Source of the DNA: Fonticula-like sp. SCN 57-25 | Taxonomy: Eukaryota | Direction: 5' to 3' | NCBI GenBank assembly: GCA_001724245.1 | Contig: MEDX01000040.1 | Location: forward strand, 1-34,324 | Length of the DNA: 34,324 nt | Shown here: piece after piece, positions 1 to 31,917 of the stretch | Layout: the number at the start of each line of letters is the position of its first letter | How positions within the stretch are numbered: the stretch's first letter is position 1 | The notes under the pieces: model-generated | Seen by the model: the letters and a program-made list of their open reading frames with translations, nothing else | The model's database searches: none | What the model was told of the DNA's origin: nothing | Position numbers and translations under genes: made by a program

Positions 1-1
1 T

Positions 2-3000
2 GGGGCTGCCGAAGAGCCCAGCACGAAACAAGCGCTTGCCGACCTTCGCGATATTGGCCTCGATCTCCTTCGGAAACGGATCGAGTCAATGAGCCAGCTA
101 CAAAACGGCCCGCTTGAGCGCGACATCTTTTTGAATTGTCTTCACAAGGTGTCGCTCCACTACCCCGAGCTCGTTGATGCGTATATCAAGCAGATCATCT
201 TTTACATGCCGCAGTACCATGGTGACTTTAAGGTGATGTGCCTCGATGTCCTGGAAAGCCGCGCCGAGCACGTGGATCAGATCTTTGTCGTCCTAAAGTC
301 CCAGGATCTCTTGGGTCTGATTAGCCACCGCGACGAGGGAGTGCAGCTAAAGACGCTCCAGCTGATATATAGGATTCTCAAGCTGCTCTCGGTCGATGAT
401 ATCGCCTACTTTTTGCCGACGCTCGCCCACTCGTGTGCGTCGATCGGAAGCCTCCCTATTCGCCTTCTCTACTTTGACGTTATCATCTGGATCTATGACA
501 ACGCCCAGATAGAGCCGTCGTCGGCGCTCCACCAGCAGCTCTGTACCGAGCTCCTCAAGGGTCTCGCGGACGAGGCTCAGATCATTCGCGTCAAAATGAC
601 GGCGTTCTGGAACGCTGAGCGGCGGCTATCTAGCGACACTGGCACGCGTGTAGTGTCGCTCATGAACGTTGCCTACACGTCCGAGGTGGAGGACATTTTC
701 CTCAACTATGCGTCGTGGCTGCTTTTGGAGGCGACGAAGAAGAGGTGCGTTCTTTGATCATGCGTGTCAAACTAATGTAGATTAGCCCTGATTACTCTGA
801 GCCCGTGTTCCGAAACCTGCCGCGCCAGACGGGCGCGTACCAGCGGATTGATGTGACCTGGCAGCGTCCGGCAGCGATGACCCCGATGTTTGTCCCTGCG
901 TCGCAGCAGGTCCACAACGAGGAAGATGTGCGAGCATTTCTCGTGTTGCTTTTCGCTCACGCGTCTTTTTATAGCTCGTCCGTATGACGCAAGATGACGC
1001 AAACGAGTTTTCCATGACGCAGAGCGCCGCGCCAGACGCCGACATGTATTCGCTCTCGCAGTTCACGGCGTCAACGCAGCGCGGTTCGACGCTCCTCTTT
1101 GAGGTCGGGTCGTCGGGAGCCGCCTCAACGCAGGACGCGACCCAGCGGATTGGCGGCTGGAGCGGAGCCGACTCAAAGTACACACGACTTCAGCGCCGAT
1201 TCACCAAGCAATCGTCCGAATCCGTTTCGTTGATGCAGATCAGGCGCGCGGAGCAGCAGAGGAAGCGCACCGACGCAGCGAACCGCCTCCGAAAGCAGGA
1301 GCGCGAGAACCGAATTACCATGTATCGGCAGTATCGAGCGGGTGAGCAGCCTGATCTAGGCATCAAGTTTGAAGAGGTGCGGTGGCGAATATTGTTTTTG
1401 GCAGCGTCTCATTTTGTATAGATCTTGCGCCCGCTCCAAGCGCTTGCGCACATTGACGTTGAGATTGCGCGCCTTTTGTTTGCGTCGCTTGTGAGCGCAG
1501 TGTACGAGCAGATGGACGGCCGCCACCACACGATGAGCGAAGATGAGCAGCGCGACCTCCAGACCTCGATTACCAGCAACATTCAAAGAGTACGCACCGC
1601 CCTTTATTTACTCGCAATTGACCCATTTCTCTAGCTCATGCAAAAATCCACCCGCCAATTCCCGCCGTTCCTGGGATCCCTCTTGGCCATCACGCACCGG
1701 TGCGGCCTTCCGATCCCCGCCAAGATTAGCGGGCGCGTCAGCGTAGAGTCGTCAAACTATCTGATTGGCATTGTGCTGTTGGAGCAGCAGATTTCGGACC
1801 GCTCGGCTGCGCCGCCGCCCGCGACGGCCTCCAACAAACGCGCTCGCGGCATGTCGGCAGCGCGGTCGGCGCCTGCGTTGGCCGAGTGGACCGAGCTTGC
1901 AGCGCTCTACATGGCGATTGGCGAGCAGGATCTCTTCCAAGAAGTGACGGAAAAGCATATCTCGCGCCATCCAGCCACCTCCGAGGGCATTTCGGCCGAG
2001 CTCCAGAGCGACTTTAAGCGCGCCTACGAAGTTTACTCGCTCGCCATCCAGAACGCCGCAGATGCCGAGGAGCGCGACCTGGATGTCTGGGAGGAGCGGG
2101 CGGTCCAGTGCGCCGAAAAGCTCATGTGGTGGGAGGAGGTGAGCCGCTTCACGCACATGATGATTGGCACCGATCCTCTTTCCGTGCTGTGGGAGCCCAG
2201 CATGGCCGATGCCCTGCGCTACTTTGTTCTTTCCTATTCCCGGCTGTGGCGGGGGTACGAGAAGGCGCAGGCTGGTGGGGCTACGGCTTTCAAGGAATGG
2301 ACGGCTGAAGATCCGAACCCGCTGGTCAAGTTTGTTCAGGATGCCGGTCATATCGCCAAGAGGTGCGTCTTTTTTTTGTATTTTTTTGCTAACACGATTA
2401 CATAGATCGTCCTATCTGGATTCTCAGTTTGATCTGGAAATGATTACCTTCCGCGTGCAGCAATCAGACTATGGCCGCGCGCGCCACCTCGTGCAGACTG
2501 GCTTCGACACCTTTTTGTCCAACTGGACAGGAATTCACCCGCTGCTCTCGTCGGCGCGGTGGGGTCTGCTGGAAAAGCTGCAGCCGTACGTTGAGGCTGA
2601 GGAGCTCCTTTCTCTAGCCTACGACCCGACGCGCTCGTTCTCTGTTGCCGAGTTTGATCGCATGCTGGCATCTTGGAAGGGGCGCCGCCCGGCGAGACAG
2701 GACAATGTCAGCAATAGCTGGGACCGCATGGTTCAATCGCGCACTCTCTATCTAGAGCGCCTGATGTCGGTTGTTTCCTCCAATGATGCTCTCCGCGACA
2801 TGCACTCGATCGACGTGGATCAAATGCGCACGCGGATCCAGTCGGAGCTTCGCGGGTATTTGCAATCACTCGCGAGTGCCGCCATTTCCCAAGGAAACTC
2901 GTATGTTGCCGACAAGACCCTTGGGTTGGCTCTTCAGATTCCCTCCAGCCCTCAGCATGACTTGGAATCCCGCGAGCTCCAGCTGCAGTGCACACTCGTG

Positions 3001-6000
3001 GAGGCCCGCACCAGCCTTTTGGCGTCGGAGCAGAAGCAGCGCCAGAGCGGGTTCAACATTTTGCTCGACCGGATCGGCCGCGCCGAGTCATCCGATGTGC
3101 GTCTTGCTTTTTTGCTCTTTTGGTTATTAATGCTTGTGTTCCTCAGCATCCCCGCCTACTTCAGTTGCAGTCCGAGGTCCTAGAGGTGACCGCAGAGGCG
3201 TTGTTCGAGCCCGGCAGCTTGACGCGCGACCTCTCCAACCTGGCGTTGACGCACCGCGGGTTTGTCAAGGCGGTTGGAGTTGGGAGCGCGTCTGACCTCG
3301 GCGCGCGCATCGCCGGCATGGGCAGTTCGCTTCTCGAGCGCGCAGTACACATTTGCGAGCAGCGGCAAGCGAGCGCGCGTGATGCGGCTGCGCTTCGTCT
3401 GCAGTTAGGCCAATTCTGCGATCGGATGCTGCGCCTGAACGAAGGCAGCGAGCAGTCTCGCGTGATGGGATCGCTTGACGCATTCCCTGGCGTCGTCATG
3501 GAACAGGTCTTGCGCGCACTTATGCTGGACCCGTCGCGAGATGGTACGATATTGCGTGATTGATTTATGTTTTAACTTTTTGTTAGCACTCGATATGATT
3601 CCACGCCTGCTCACGCTTCTGGACGTGTACCCCGCGACCTCGGATGCATTTGCGAGCCACGCTGCGTCGGTGCCTCTCTGGGTGTTCCTCAAGTGGGTCC
3701 CCCAGATGACGGCGTTGATTGGGCAGCCCGAGGGCCGCGTGGTTCTGCCGCTGCTCGACGTTCTTGCCGTTGCATACCCGGAGGCGCTTCGCTACCCATT
3801 CAATATCAGTTGCGAGCAAATTGAGCTACAATTGGAGCAGCTGCCTCCCCTTGCAGAGGCGATTCGCCAAAAGGTGCGCTCGTGTTTGCAATATTGTCTT
3901 TCTTATACTTTCCCATAGTTGTTCTCAAGCGTTCATCGAGACCTGGTTACGGGGCTGCTCGAGCTGACGAACCCTGAGCACATCTTGTCTGACTTTATGG
4001 CATTTGCTTCAAGCATGGTCGGGCGTCGGGCCGCGGCTACATCTTCTGCCAAGAAGAAGCTCGCTGAAAAGATTCTGGATCGCGAGCTAGCGCAAATGTA
4101 CCAGATCTTGGCGCTGGATGTCCCGGCGCGTCGTACCGGCAGCTCTCACGCCTCGATCCGTATGCGCTCATTTTGGCGCGAAATAGTTTGCTAACATGTG
4201 GCCATAGACGAAAAGTTTGCGGAACAACACGGGGACGCGGTGAGGGCACTTTTCCCAGGTACGATGAGGAATATTTGTATGTGTATGCTAAGATATTCGT
4301 CAGCGGGCCATTATGAGGTGTGGGCGGGGTCGTCTACAAAGGACCGCGAGGCGCAGAACCAAGTGCGCGATCGTGTGAAGAACTTTACGAAATCGGCCAA
4401 GCTGCCTCCCGTGCTCGCGTCGTACTCGCCGCGCCGGCTGCCCAGTCTCAAGATGAGCCGGCAACGCGTTGAAGTGCCGGGCCAGTACGAGTCGTGTGCT
4501 CGCGTGCCGCGCCCATTGGACCACGCGCGCATCGCTGACTTTGACGAGTCGCTGCTGCTCCTGTCTTCGCTGCGCCAACCAAAGCGGCTGACCATCCGCG
4601 GAACCGACGAGCACGACGTCCAGTTCCTCGTGAAGGGCGGGGAAGATCTGCGTCAAGATCAGCGCATCCAGCAGCTCTTCTCTGTCATGAACGAGCTTGT
4701 GCAAGCCACTGGCCGACCAGGCCAGAACTCGTCGATCCGCCTCCGGACGTACAGGGTGGTCCCCCTGAGCATGTCCGTCGGCGTCCTGGAGTGGGTGTCC
4801 AACACGGTCCCCCTCAAGGCGTTCATTCAGGCCGAGCTGGTCTCGCGCTTTGGCTCCAACACACCTGACTCTGCGGCGAATGCTGCCTACAAGCACTTTA
4901 TCGAAAAGGAAAAGGGGTTCATCCAGGTATACAAGGCGTCTCGCTCCACCGCAGTTGCCGCCGCCGAGCACATTGTCAGCCAGCTCCCGTGGGACACTCT
5001 CCGAAGCGCTGTGCTCAAGCTGGCCGCCACCCCCGAGGCATCGCTGACCATCCGCGCGCTCTTTGTCCGCAGCCTCGCCGGCATCAACATTGGCGGGTAC
5101 CTGCTGGGTATCGGCGACCGGCACGCAGAAAACTTTTTGGTCGACAAGCGGCGGTACGTCTCGTATATATATTTCGTTGGTCTGACTAGTTTTTAGCGGC
5201 GAGCTCGTGTCCATTGACTTTGGGCACGCCTTTGGATCGGCCACGCAGATCTTGCAGTTCCCCGAGCTCATCCCATTCAGGCTGACACGGTACGCTGCAT
5301 TTCCCCTGCGCTGCCGCCCTCACCCTCGCTCGTAGTCAAATGATCAATGTGTCGGCGCCTCATGGAGCAGGTGGCCTTCTGGAGCATAGCATGGTCAGGA
5401 TGCTCGATGGTGCGTTGGATGTTTGCCTCAGCAGAGTCTCACGGTATTTTTCTAGGTTTACAAGCGAGCAAGGACGTCCTGCTTAACGCCATGGGCGTGT
5501 TCCTCAAGGAGCCGCTGCTCGACTGGGAGCGCTTTGCGCATCGGACAAACACGCAGGCCGAGAGGGCGTCCAAGATCGCGCGGGGAGAGACGACAGCCGC
5601 CACCCTGCACCGCTACGCCGCCGTCCGCCTCGACATCGCGCGGCGAAAGCTCAACAGGGGAAACCCGACTGATATCCGCTCAATACACGTTTTGTTTTGT
5701 GTGTCTGTGGATGTGCGTGCTTGCTGAATGTATTATTGGCTGTGCGGCGTGGTGCTTGTTTGTCTTTATTCGAGCTACTTTGTGTTGTTTTCCTTAACCG
5801 CATCGTACTGCTGCTAGGCGAGGAGCTCGACCGCAACAACAACCCGGACGTCCGGAAGGAGATTTCTGCCATTCGTGCCGCGCTGAACGGCGACAAGGAG
5901 CACAACGTCCGTGCCAATGTGGGTGCGGTGTGCGCAACGACTCGAGAGCAGGTACGCTGCCTGATCGACCTCGCGAGCGACCTCAACGTCCAAGCGCGCT

Positions 6001-6029
6001 GCTGGATTGGCCTCGCGCCGTGGCTCTAG
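2..6029 (+). CDS. PRKDC: DNA-dependent protein kinase catalytic subunit, 5'-truncated by the window edge (M-HEAT end, FAT, PIKK kinase, FATC); about 14 introns in the window
   Basis: Kinase motifs [36 protein letters not shown] and [39 protein letters not shown] end [26 protein letters not shown] resembles the DNA-PKcs end ([23 protein letters not shown]). [12 protein letters not shown] and PMFV..SQ motifs are present. Frame is open from position 2, and ORF breaks coincide with GT..AG introns (e.g. donors near 746, 1377, 2363, 3544, 5154). Confidence 0.95.
5672..5808 (+). other. U12-type (minor spliceosome) AT-AC intron in PRKDC
   Basis: Starts ATATCCGC, has TTTCCTTAAC at 5789-5798, and ends ...GTAC at 5808. 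Removal joins the two frames to give NPTVLLGEEL, colinear with DNA-PKcs NPAVITCDEL. Confidence 0.85.
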
Positions 6030-6180
6030 CTTTGCCATGCATTTTTATTAGTTATATTCTTGTACCTTTACTATTCGAATACTCAATGCATTCTATCAAT
6101 TTCAACCAATTGATATGCACGGCTCTTCAACACTTGCTAAAAGTCTATTCCCATTCTTCCATTCAGAGGAAGCGCGGGAA

Positions 6181-9933: not shown

Positions 9934-12900
9934 TCACTCGGCGCTCGGCGCTTCCGGTGCATGTTCCTCTGCGGCCGCCGCGCCCTTGAGCGCCGTTGTG
10001 GCCCGCAACTGGGCAAGCTCCACTTCGGCGGCCTGGTCCAGCAGGCGGAACTCGAGCTGCTGGCAGATGTGCTTCACGGCCTGATACTTGTCCTCGAGGG
10101 CACTGACCTGCGTCTGCCAGGCCTGCTCTTGCGTCTGTTGCCGTTTCAGCTGCACGACGTGGTCAGTTGACGAGAGCGCGACCAAAAAAACGTACCAAAT
10201 CCTCATTCAGGGTCCGCTGCGCCGAAATGGCCGTCTCGGAAGATGCCAACTTTGCCTTGAGCAGCCGAATCTCGGTCGAGTAAGATCTGACCAACGAGTG
10301 TAAGTAAAAACACATTGACCAATTCGCATAAAAACGACGCACTCTAAAAGCAGGCGGCTCTTTTCATCTTCTAATTGGAGCGACCGAATTACGTGGTCCT
10401 TTTCGCGCGCCAATGTAGCGAGAGTCTCGACTTCCTTCTTGCCCTCCTCGTGCGTGGCAGAATCGCGCTCCCAAAGCAGCAGCTGCGACGAAAGCTGCTG
10501 CACCTGGTGGGTCAGGTCGTCCACCGTCAGCGCCTTTGCCTCTGCAGTCGCTGTCCGCATTTCGAGAAGCGAGACGCGCTCCTCTGATGCCTCCAGCTTT
10601 GCCGTCTGCACAGTCACGCGGGCCTGAAGCTGCTGCAGCATCGCGTCCTTATCAATGCACGCGTCTCCGAGGCGCTTCGAGTCCTCACGATACTTGCTCG
10701 TCTTGCTCTGCAGCTCGGCGACCCACTTTTCATGAATGTCCTTGATTGCAACCAGATCCGTGCGCTGCGTGGCCACCTTTTGGTGCAGCTGCTTGAGCTC
10801 GGCCTTGTTCAAGCGCAGCTCCTCAAACTAGAGGTAAAGGTTAGCAGACGCTACAAATGATGACAAAGCGTACCAGTGATTCGTGGTCGGCGTCCTGCAG
10901 CATGCGAGCTTGCTTTTGGCGGTGAAGGCTTCGTACCAGCTGCGCGTACTGATGGCGCAGCTCGCGCTCAAACAAGAGCTGGTTCTGCAGCATAAAGAGA
11001 TCGCGACCCGACGCACTTTCAACCAGCGTCTGCGACGGCTCCACCGTGCTCGGCGACGACGGCGCGCTCATCGAGCTGTCGCTGCCGACGCGCTCGATCT
11101 GGTACGCGCGCATCACCTCATCCGAGGCAAGGCGGTAGGCCGAATACTTTGACGTCAGCGCGGGCACGCGCGACATGGGCTCCGACCGCCGCCTGCGGCC
11201 CTTGCTCGCCGTCCACCCCAACGGCTGATCCGGTACGTGAGCGCCAGGCTCAAAGGGAGACGTCGGCGCCGACCGATCGTCGAACACGCCAACAGGCGAC
11301 GACGCGTTTTTGGGAGACGAAACGGACATCGTCCCGAGGATTTCTTCAAGGATAGATGACGACTGGGCGCGCTTCGGGGTGGGAACCTCGACTTCTGCGG
11401 AGGGCCGCGGGGCATCGTCGCTTGCAAGCGGAGGCGACTGTGGGGCGTCAGGGTAAGGCGATGCCAGCGGGGAGTCAACCAGCGGCGGGGGCGATCCGAC
11501 GTGCGCCATTGAGTCCGCGGCCAGATTGAGGGAAGGGAGAGCGTCGCTGCTAGGAGTCGAGCTGCTTCTTTCGTCGTGCTCGCCAAAAACGGCGTGCTCG
11601 GTGCTCATTTCAAGGACATCTTCGGGTGTCATGTTGGCAAAGCGCGCCTCGCTTAGCTCGTCTTCCTTTGACGACAGAAAAAGACTCGGTGACAGCGACC
11701 GGCGCCGGAAGAGGGGCTGAAAGGCGGTCAGAAACAAAAGAAAAGCACGACGAGACGCGGCGTACGAAAACAAAAGTGGAAAGCTTGGTGCGCAGCGAGG
11801 TGGTCTGGGACGAGTTGCGCATAAAGTCTAGCATATTGCAGGGAAACACGCCGTACAATACATCAAAGTACAGTTCAAAAACACCCATAAACTTGTCACT
11901 TTCGGCTGCCTCGAGCCCAACGCCTCCCGCGTCTATAGCTGTTTAGCATGCAAAAGTACGAAATGGTGCTCGTACCGGTGAACGAGTTCCAGTCAGATAA
12001 TAACCAGCGCGAGTCAATCTCTGCAAGAGCGATAGATTCCGTGGTAAATGTCGACGCCACTTCGACCGCATCGTCGTCGCCTTCCGGTAATGATACCTCT
12101 TCATTGGTCTCTTCCACCTGACCTTGCGTCTACAATCGCACTTAGCAAGGCAGTTATAAACTGGCTGACGTACGGCCTCAAAGACGCTCAGCCAGCGGAA
12201 GCACCGCTGAAATACCGCCATCAGCGTGCTGTAGAGGTCACCTAACCTTGACGAGCAGGATGGAATGAGCATCAGCAGTGTCCGGAGCTCGACCAGGAAG
12301 AGACTGAAGGATTCGTCCACCTGCGCGCCAGTCAGAACAGGATCTTGGACAGAGAGCACATACCAGCAATGATGTCACGAGCGCGGAGAAAGAAGGCGTG
12401 TCCATCACATCGCTGATACCGCGAGCATGTCGCGAAACTAATTGGGCAAAGAGGTCCATGGCAACCACGCGAGTCGGCTTGGCGGCGATCCTTGGCGCGA
12501 GGTGGTTGAAAAAGGTGCGGGCATCCAGCTCGCCCAGGGCAAGAACAACAGCAACAGCGCGGTCCCCGTTGCGCATTGCGCTTTGGAACAGACTCACTGC
12601 GAGCTGCTCGTCCTTTACCCCCAATTCGGCCAGGAGCGCCGTAGCCGCAGATGAGGCTGCGATATGCGACGATTCGGCATGCTTTCTCAAAAACGGGTAC
12701 CATTCGGCCGCCTTGTCGCCTGCTCCGCCTATCTGCAGCAGCTGCATGCATGAAAGCAAAACACTCGCCTGCTTGTCCGTGGTCTCCGTGTCCAGCTTGG
12801 CCGCGCGGACTTCTGCAAAGAGCTGTGCATCGGTGGTGAGCGTTTGGCGGCCCAGGGTTCGGACGTCGTACCAGAGGGCTAGCGGTCACATTGGCGCCTG

Positions 12901-30257: not shown

Positions 30258-31524
30258 ATGGGAGTCGACCTGGGCCTCGACCCACTCCTCTCTTCGTTCC
30301 TATGGTTCGTGTCGTCTTTTATTTCTTTTTTCCAGAGATTTCAGATTTCCTTACCCTTTGTTTTTTCCTTTTAGGGGCGTCTTTTCTAGCATCTCGCTCA
30401 TCATTGGTGCGGCATGCGGGATCTACCTGAAGGTGCCGACAAAGGTCATCAGCATCATTATGGCCTTTGGCGCGGGAGCGCTGCTATTTGCCCTATCGAT
30501 CGAGATTTATGGCATAGCCATCTGCCAGTTTGAGAACGGCGGCCACACCGACCGCATCCCTATGCTCCTCTTGGCAGTTGGCTCGGTGCTCGGCGCGATT
30601 ATGTTTTCAGTTACAAACTACTTGGTCGAGACCAAGGGGGGCGTTTTCCGCACCATCGAGTGGGACAACGACTGGGTTTCCTCGGTGCTCGGCGTTTGCT
30701 TCCCCAAGTTCCGCCGCAGCGAATCGTTCCATGACCCTGATGACTCGACAGCGCCCAACATCGCCGTTTCCGACTCCACCGAGCCTGCAACGAGCGAGGA
30801 CCCGCTGATCCGTTCCTCCAGATACCGCAGCACGATGAGCGGATACGGCCGCGAATGTACGCCGATGCATGCGGGGCTGCGATTTTCTTCCTGCTAACCT
30901 TCTTGCTTAGCGTACGCTCTGCAGCCGCCGACTGCTCGCCAGAGCATGCGCATGAGCATGCGCCGCTCGGTTGTCATGAAGCACGACGACGGTATTCACA
31001 CGCACTCGCATGTGATCGACAGCAGCGTCGGCATGGCCATCTGGCTCGGCATGCTGATCGACAGCTTCCCCGAGTCGCTCGTCATCGGTATCCTGGCCAC
31101 GGCCGAGGGCGGCGTCTCGTTCGCCTTCATTATCAGCGTCTTTATCAGCAACTTTCCCGAGGCGATGTCGAGCTCTGCCATTCTGAGGCAGGCGCGCATG
31201 CCCCCGTGGAAGATCTTCCTCATGTGGTCCGCCATTGTCTGCGTCACCGGCCTTGGGGCGCTCGTCGGCGCGGTGTGCTTTAACGGTGTTCATGGCCGCG
31301 GACAGGAGCTCGCGGCAAAGACCATTGAAGGTCTCGCTGCCGGCGCCATGCTCGTGCTCATCGCCGAGGCCAACTTGCCCGTACGCCCGTTCATTTCCCA
31401 GGTTTCTTGCCACTCACGCTCGGGTGGATTATAGGAAGCATTCCACAACGCAGGAAGTGTGGTAGGATTCGCCACTCTGATGGGCTTCCTCACGGCATAC
31501 TTTATCAAGCTGATCGAGTTTTAG
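30258..31524 (+). CDS. ZIP (ZupT/ZIP11-like) divalent metal transporter; 3 introns
   Basis: SLIIGAACG, IMAFGAGALLFALSIEI, His-rich loop HDDGIHTHSH, GMLIDSFPESLVIG, VFISNFPEAMSSS, IEGLAAGAMLVLIAE..LP|EAF, GFATLMGF. Confidence 0.85.
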
Positions 31525-31917
31525 ACGACCAGCGTGAAAAAAATGACCATATAGATGGCCTTTCGGCGATAAATTTATCCACCGTTGGCATATGATTGAG
31601 TCCTCTTTAAAATGTTTCGCCTTTGAAGATGTTCTCTTGGCGATGCTCTTTTCTTTATTTTCCATGGTTTCCTTAATTTTGGACCTCTTTGTACAGCTGC
31701 AATATACCCTAATCAGTATGACATTGTTCAAGAAGAGGCTCAGCAGCAGCTCGCTCTCGGAAAAGACACCCGATTGGTGGTAGGGTTACCCATTTTTCGC
31801 TACCTCGAATGTTTTCAAGGGTGGCTGGTTTCATCTACCTGCTTTCAGTTCACTGGTAAACCACCCGTCCCGTACACAAGCAAGGCACGTCGGGCCCGAC
31901 TAGGCATCCTCGCCGCC

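Follow-up and report, generated by a model that had tools for sequence, protein, structure and literature searches.

The contig MEDX01000040.1 of Fonticula-like sp. SCN 57-25 (assembly GCA_001724245.1), positions 1 to 34,324 of which are referred to here as the window, holds on its forward strand the C-terminal third of a PRKDC gene encoding a DNA-PKcs orthologue. Within this gene the segment 5672-5808 is very probably a U12-type AT-AC intron in phase 1, situated in the DNA-PKcs of a GC-rich unicellular eukaryote. The segment carries U12 core signals in the geometry of this intron class, its borders coincide with a junction that is fixed by protein homology, and a U12-type intron at the same codon and in the same phase is present in the orthologous gene of a distant lineage. 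We infer that the RNA is spliced between 5671 and 5809 and that the organism possesses the small nuclear ribonucleoproteins (snRNPs) of the minor spliceosome.

Signals and geometry of the segment 5672-5808

The proposed intron and its signals, with lengths in nucleotides (nt), are the following:

5672..5808, + strand: proposed U12-type AT-AC intron, 137 nt, phase 1, based on signals, homology and composition
5672..5679, + strand: 5' splice site ATATCCGC, in which the ATATCC core (5672-5677) matches and +7/+8 are GC, not TT
5789..5798, + strand: branch-point sequence TTTCCTTAAC, with candidate branch adenosines 5796/5797, 12/11 nt from the last intron base
5807..5808, + strand: 3' splice site AC, preceded by CGCATCGT, without pyrimidine tract

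The 5' splice site consensus of U12 introns is ATATCCTT, the positions +7/+8 of which pair with U11 and U6atac according to the known pairing schemes. At +1..+6 the segment reads ATATCC and agrees with the core [AG]TATCC, whereas GC is found at 5678-5679 in place of TT; because TT is common but not universal at +7/+8, this mismatch was treated as a deviation and not as a ground for exclusion. Towards the 3' end, TTTCCTTAAC agrees with the branch motif TCCTTRAY and is followed by CGCATCGTAC, which ends at 5808, so that the branch-to-3' distance is short (11-12 nt) and a polypyrimidine tract is absent. The terminal pair, which is AT-AC or GT-AG in the main subtypes of U12 introns, is unmixed (AT...AC). 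An optimum of 11-13 nt between branch and 3' end is given for U12 introns in the available text of a review (PMC3584512). A first-pass annotation of the same DNA had proposed a 137-nt segment starting with ATATCC and ending in AC, with a perfect U12 branch sequence near its end and a donor departing from the consensus at +7/+8, and on direct reading its coordinates, motifs and length all proved correct.

In 34,324 bases, both strands included, TCCTTAAC occurs once, at 5791, and [AG]TATCC has 14 occurrences in the window. The relaxed composite pattern TATCC-N(100-130)-TCCTTRAY-N(6-14)-A[CG] has a single match, which is the segment 5672-5808 itself; in shuffles of the window its mean was 0.07, with at least one match in 5 of 100. 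This shuffle test misses the main point, which is that the match coincides exactly with a junction established independently by homology. Under a simple product model based on the composition of the local U2 introns, the probability that such a fixed junction has ATATCC at +1 together with a terminal AC, and TCCTTAAC in one of 8 registers, amounts to about 8e-10.

Two further sites considered as U12 signals were rejected as chance occurrences. The GTATCC at 31088 (GTATCCTGG) is part of a coding exon in a gene for a ZIP-type transporter, and TTTCCTTAAT at 31668 belongs to the spacer between two genes, before an EHD-type gene.

The junction as fixed by homology

The gene and the exons on both sides of the segment were placed as follows:

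1-6029, + strand: PRKDC (DNA-PKcs) orthologue, C-terminal third, by tblastn tiling with homologues; 5' end off the window
5410-5455, + strand: U2 intron upstream of the penultimate exon, GTGCGT...TAG
5456..5671, + strand: penultimate coding exon, by frame and homology, ending AAC CCG ACT plus G, the first base of the next codon
5809..6029, + strand: last exon, VLLGEELD...FATC...APWL, with the stop codon at 6027-6029

The gene was assigned to DNA-PKcs on account of a kinase domain followed by a FATC tail and of top named matches that are DNA-PKcs and not ATM, ATR or TOR, an assignment which covers the C-terminal part in the window, the N-terminal part lying outside it. In the protein homology search the DNA-PKcs of fungi, animals and protists were the best matches of this kinase gene. 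Pfam places PI3_PI4_kinase (PF00454) on 4450-5169 with 96.6 bits and FATC (PF02260) on 5811-6026 with 23.5 bits, just under the curated cut-off of 25.3. The FATC tail at 5941-6026 ends in CWIGLAPWL and is somewhat divergent.

When 5671 is joined to 5809, the sequence reads NRGNPTVLLGEELD, the exon after 5808 starting with TG CTG CTA GGC GAG GAG CTC, and the resulting motif (R/K)KLxGxNPxxxxxxEL aligns without gap with 24 DNA-PKcs tails that are either named or derived from transcripts. For a wider count 248 PRKDC-like matches were available, of which the 156 ending in a FATC-like tail were kept and 92 were dropped beforehand. Exactly 18 residues stand opposite the joined 18-residue stretch in 152 of these 156 homologues; four are shorter there by truncation or misalignment (0, 6, 15 and 17 residues) and none is longer. 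The claim of the first-pass annotation that splicing restores NPTVLLGEEL at the length found in DNA-PKcs is thereby borne out, the alignment being gapless in the 152 homologues. Moving the junction by 1-2 nt leaves the length the same, but the intron would then have the ends GA..TA, TA..CT or TG..GT. From the spacing counts together with these shifted ends it follows that AT-AC at 5672/5808 belongs to the only recognised intron class which restores the universal spacing.

Comparison with the U2 introns of PRKDC

Besides the segment 5672-5808, the PRKDC gene of the window contains 12 short U2 introns, all of them placed confidently:

Starts 745, 928, 1377, 1590, 2363 and 3097, + strand: U2 introns of PRKDC
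Starts 3544, 3874, 4160, 5154, 5290 and 5410, + strand: U2 introns of PRKDC

Without exception (12 of 12) these are GT-AG introns of 41-50 nt, with donors of the form GT[GA][CT]G (GTGCG/GTACG/GTATG type) and TAG or CAG as acceptors, and in 11 of the 12 a YTNAY motif is present, its A 10-16 nt from the 3' end. The segment 5672-5808 has the transcript and a T-rich composition in common with them: its GC content is 0.44 and its T content 0.43, compared with 0.43 and 0.41 in the U2 introns and 0.61 and 0.21 in coding sequence, and its thirds are all intron-like (GC 0.39/0.48/0.41, T 0.44/0.42/0.44). It differs in length and in its ends. At 137 nt it has about three times the length of the local U2 introns, in keeping with the earlier statement that it exceeds most of them more than twofold, and on U2 matrices built from the 12 introns its ends score -5.9 and -6.1.

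A count of U2-like units in the whole window, made by pattern only and unverified, gave about 54, with 37 on the + and 17 on the - strand.

Intron position in other DNA-PKcs genes

A scan of metagenome contigs with the C-terminal tail alignment yielded 80 loci, which were sorted by hand:

53 of 80 loci: motif uninterrupted
16 of 80 loci: GT-AG intron 10 nt downstream, both exons seen, after NPxxIT plus 2 nt, phase 2
5 of 80 loci: acceptor only of the downstream intron
4 of 80 loci: region not covered
2 of 80 loci: intron at the position and phase of the window (L044 and L075)

The absence of an intron from the 53 uninterrupted loci means little, because many of them are near-duplicates and many may be transcript-derived. 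Of the two loci with an intron at the position in question, L075 is the sequence of the window itself, intron included and differing by 3 single bases over 1346 aligned positions, and for this reason adds nothing independent. The 2.6-kb metagenome contig on which it lies matches window positions 4866-6145 with its positions 1200-2611.

The second locus, L044, is situated on a metagenome contig with 16% GC and possesses a GT-AG minor-type intron at the same codon and in the same phase as 5672-5808. Its junction reads AAC CCA GCC T/GTATCCTTATATA...ACATCCTTAATGTTTTTGATTCATTACAG/AT ATT GTT TGT AAC GAA TTG, with the donor GTATCCTTAT and the branch sequence TCCTTAAT (in ATCCTTAAT) followed by AG; the intron measures 80 nt and the branch A lies 19-20 nt from the AG. 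The spliced product RRKLELENPAYIVCNEL is 39% identical to that of the window, without a gap at the junction, and over 108 residues it shows 70% identity to Scutellospora calospora P0253, a DNA-PKcs of the Glomeromycotina. Both introns have the codon and phase (NPx plus 1 nt), the U12 5' core and a TCCTTRAY branch in common, whereas L044 differs from 5672-5808 in its GT-AG subtype, the full GTATCCTT donor, the length of 80 nt, the longer branch gap and the very AT-rich genome. A position held in common with a U12-type intron of an orthologue, which supports a U12 assignment without defining it, is thus found in L044.

The first-pass annotation had considered that the intron may be lineage-specific and had proposed a comparison of intron positions across PRKDC orthologues. 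This comparison recovered the position in the Glomeromycotina-like contig L044, and a lineage-specific origin is left unsupported, because the position is common to two very distant genomes and the intron is U12-type in both. The intron at 5672-5808 is probably ancient rather than lineage-specific. The common position also agrees with the strong positional conservation that has been reported for U12 introns (PMC2426677, PMC3584512; available parts).

In animal PRKDC a U2 intron likewise breaks this short motif shortly before the FATC exon, 10 nt downstream of the intron of the window. Unlike 5672-5808, this intron interrupts another codon in phase 2 and is a GT-AG intron with pyrimidine-rich 3' ends. 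It was seen in 21 animal-like loci (in the range L049-L072, L076, L080), the donors being of the GTAAG/GTGAG/GTACG type, and it is here that three partial protein models from vertebrates end. At L058 and L060 the downstream donor reads GTATCCTC with no U12 branch sequence, and relatives show GTATTT, GTATTC, GTAAAT and GTAAGC at this donor site.

Among the same 80 loci, the DNA-PKcs tails of L040 and L051 read through several in-frame stops in an otherwise good alignment, which suggests organisms with reassigned stop codons. Locus L079 (618-815) has a FATC-like tail, the upstream sequence of which is without DNA-PKcs likeness in any frame.

Alternative readings

One further feature has to be introduced, since it lies inside the proposed intron:

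5713..5774, + strand: internal U2-like GT-AG candidate (GTGCGTGC...TTCGAG), 62 nt, in frame; rival splice or decoy

Several observations count against 5672-5808 as a U12-type intron. As +7/+8 pair with U11 and U6atac, a donor without the usual T's at these positions would be recognised more weakly; the support from other species consists of one independent contig, L044; and the proposed intron encloses the candidate 5713-5774, which is in frame and has a consensus-like donor (GTGCGT). In addition, the extra residues which this candidate would leave in the protein have codon log-odds of 0.03-0.07 per codon, compared with a 5th percentile of about -0.3, and are not separated from coding sequence by this test, which favours neither reading.

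It is conceivable, though rather improbable, that the segment is a remnant of a U12 intron that is ancient in fungal-side opisthokonts, the donor of which has been cut to ATATCC and in which 5713-5774 is perhaps nested. Its carriers would be the Fonticula-like protist and the glomeromycete-like fungus. The U2 introns would have shrunk to 41-50 nt and the U12 intron would have been kept at three times that length, and the reduced donor would imply either that recognition of the 5' site is relaxed or that U11 and U6atac have changed in compensation. The candidate 5713-5774 could then make a U2-within-U12 nested intron with a two-step removal.

Distinctly less plausible is the removal of 5713-5774 as a GT-AG intron with its flanks 5672-5712 and 5775-5808 coding, which would create a lineage-specific insertion of 25 residues between NPT and LLLGEEL. 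The donor gat/GTGCGTGC scores 9.9, where the 12 true donors score 2.4-13.0, the acceptor with 5.6 lies near the bottom of the range of the true acceptors (5.2-15.0), and a gene finder restricted to GT-AG would pick this intron. However, an insertion at this site was found in none of the 156 homologues, and with 62 nt the candidate is beyond the local range of 41-50 nt, lacks a YTNAY branch motif and ends in GAG, whereas the 12 true acceptors are TAG or CAG. Its flanks have GC contents of 0.39 and 0.41 and a T content of 0.44, and their GC content at third codon positions is 0.40, where coding windows of 25 codons have a median of 0.76 and a 1st percentile of 0.36. The insertion would, moreover, require that the U12 signals stand at the borders defined by homology, and that L044 has its orthologous intron, by coincidence. 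A donor-like hexamer GT[GA]CG[TC] arises in a shuffled 137-mer with a chance of 0.15, so that the donor of 5713-5774 may be a chance decoy. This in-frame candidate had been overlooked in the first-pass annotation; the interpretation of 5672-5808 as a U12-type AT-AC intron given there is upheld by spacing and signals, whereas the suggestion of lineage specificity is not supported in view of L044.

Less credence still can be given to a retention of the segment, with the minor spliceosome lost or the gene decaying, in which case a stop at 5725-5727 would end the protein without a FATC tail. The upstream frame is indeed open as far as this stop (open reading frame 5344..5727), and many lineages are reported to have lost U12 splicing (PMC3584512, PMC2846911; the text at hand). 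Elsewhere, however, the gene is intact: its 12 U2 introns are clean, and its kinase and FATC exons are conserved and lie in open frames. The U12 core signals, too, are unmutated, and a last exon that is no longer translated would not stay conserved.

The weakest alternative, a non-U12 splice other than 5713-5774 (GC-AG 5678-5817, or GT-AG 5689-5774, 5717-5817 or 5699-5817), can be dismissed as extremely improbable: all four are in frame, GC-AG giving NPTDIREEL, which is one residue short, and the GT-AG options inserting 12-17 residues, and CTTAAC with CTAG at 5817, 19 nt on, could take the roles of branch and acceptor of a U2 intron, for which the local intron 3544-3586 offers a parallel. Against them, the four donors score -7.8, -6.1, 0.1 and 4.3, the score of the acceptor at 5817 is 0.1, their 86-140 nt far exceed the local 41-50 nt, and each of these splices alters the invariant spacing.

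Predicted splicing and comparison with known minor introns

If 5672-5808 is spliced as a U12-type AT-AC intron, by analogy with characterised U12 introns the U11/U12 di-snRNP would bind ATATCC and TTTCCTTAAC together and the adenosine at 5796/5797 would be bulged as the branch point. U4atac/U6atac.U5 would then join, with U6atac replacing U11 at the 5' site, and two transesterifications would connect 5671 to 5809, producing the codon G/TG (Val) and NPTVLLGEEL, followed by the FATC tail. By analogy with the reviewed proposal that minor splicing is rate-limiting (PMC3584512, as far as its text was available), slow splicing of the segment may limit the output of DNA-PKcs.

Close counterparts are found in Trichinella spiralis, the AT-AC introns of which, verified by expressed sequence tags (ESTs), read /ATATCCTTTC...TTTCCTTAAC...AC/ (PMC2846911, Table 1 being the part used). 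These introns and 5672-5808 are alike in starting with ATATCC, in TTTCCTTAAC, in an AC shortly downstream and in the lack of a pyrimidine tract; at +7/+8 the segment has GC and the Trichinella introns have TT, the latter being EST-verified and the former predicted. Gaps between branch and intron end about as long as that of L044 also occur among EST-verified examples, by our own count in the same table (PMC2846911).

Among opisthokonts of the fungal side, U12 splicing is documented for Rhizophagus irregularis: the accessible portion of PMC10639083 gives 205 predicted minor introns for this species and reports that the four minor snRNAs (small nuclear RNAs) were all found, and Glomeromycota are stated there to have both. 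L044 belongs by protein similarity to the same fungal group, whereas the organism of the window is not a glomeromycete. The minor introns of R. irregularis show a phase bias of 1 > 2 > 0 according to the same portion (PMC10639083), and phase 1 of 5672-5808 agrees with this bias away from phase 0. Neither 'PRKDC' nor 'Fonticula' appears in the main text of PMC10639083, and a pairing of Fonticula with U12 or the minor spliceosome was not among the matches listed in the literature search. A search of the 34,324-nt window against Rfam, uninformative on the rest of the genome, gave no match, to snRNAs or otherwise, whether the gathering threshold or E<=1 was applied.

Should the segment be spliced as proposed, it alone would be enough to predict a working minor spliceosome in an unannotated organism, the nearest relatives of which share about 50-70% protein identity for three genes of the window. 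A gene caller limited to GT-AG would either truncate DNA-PKcs before the FATC tail or add 25 spurious residues. The literature searched on PRKDC and U12, as far as its text was accessible, does not name PRKDC as a minor-intron gene, and the position common with the glomeromycete-like contig adds a PRKDC U12 position not found in print, although supplementary lists may hold it. In other respects the segment is an unremarkable representative of an intron class that is well described.

Relatives of the organism and sequencing-run contigs

In a library of 1.84 billion proteins the sole 100% match was P0241, an open-frame fragment of 305 amino acids, and no transcript-derived protein across the junction was found there. 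The protein library search revealed neither a closer relative nor a eukaryote-style gene model of this genome, and no relative turned up in a search of genome contigs with the C-terminal alignment. The DNA-PKcs kinase exon has 48-50% identity to proteins of chytrids and Mucoromycota, and Fonticula alba is the best named match of the inositol monophosphatase (49%) and of the EHD domain (71%) encoded in the window. Judged from these protein similarities, the organism is probably an opisthokont protist of the fungal side.

The contigs of sequencing run X1 are DNA-like and give no verdict on splicing; one of them, a 152-nt contig over 5530-5681, continues 10 nt into the intron, as DNA would, and no joint at the intron was reported. 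Another contig of this run, with a depth of 119.5, joins 9995 to 11051 and skips 1055 bases with the ends TT..CT, the shorter side of the joint being 21 letters, and it probably stems from a repeat or from another organism.

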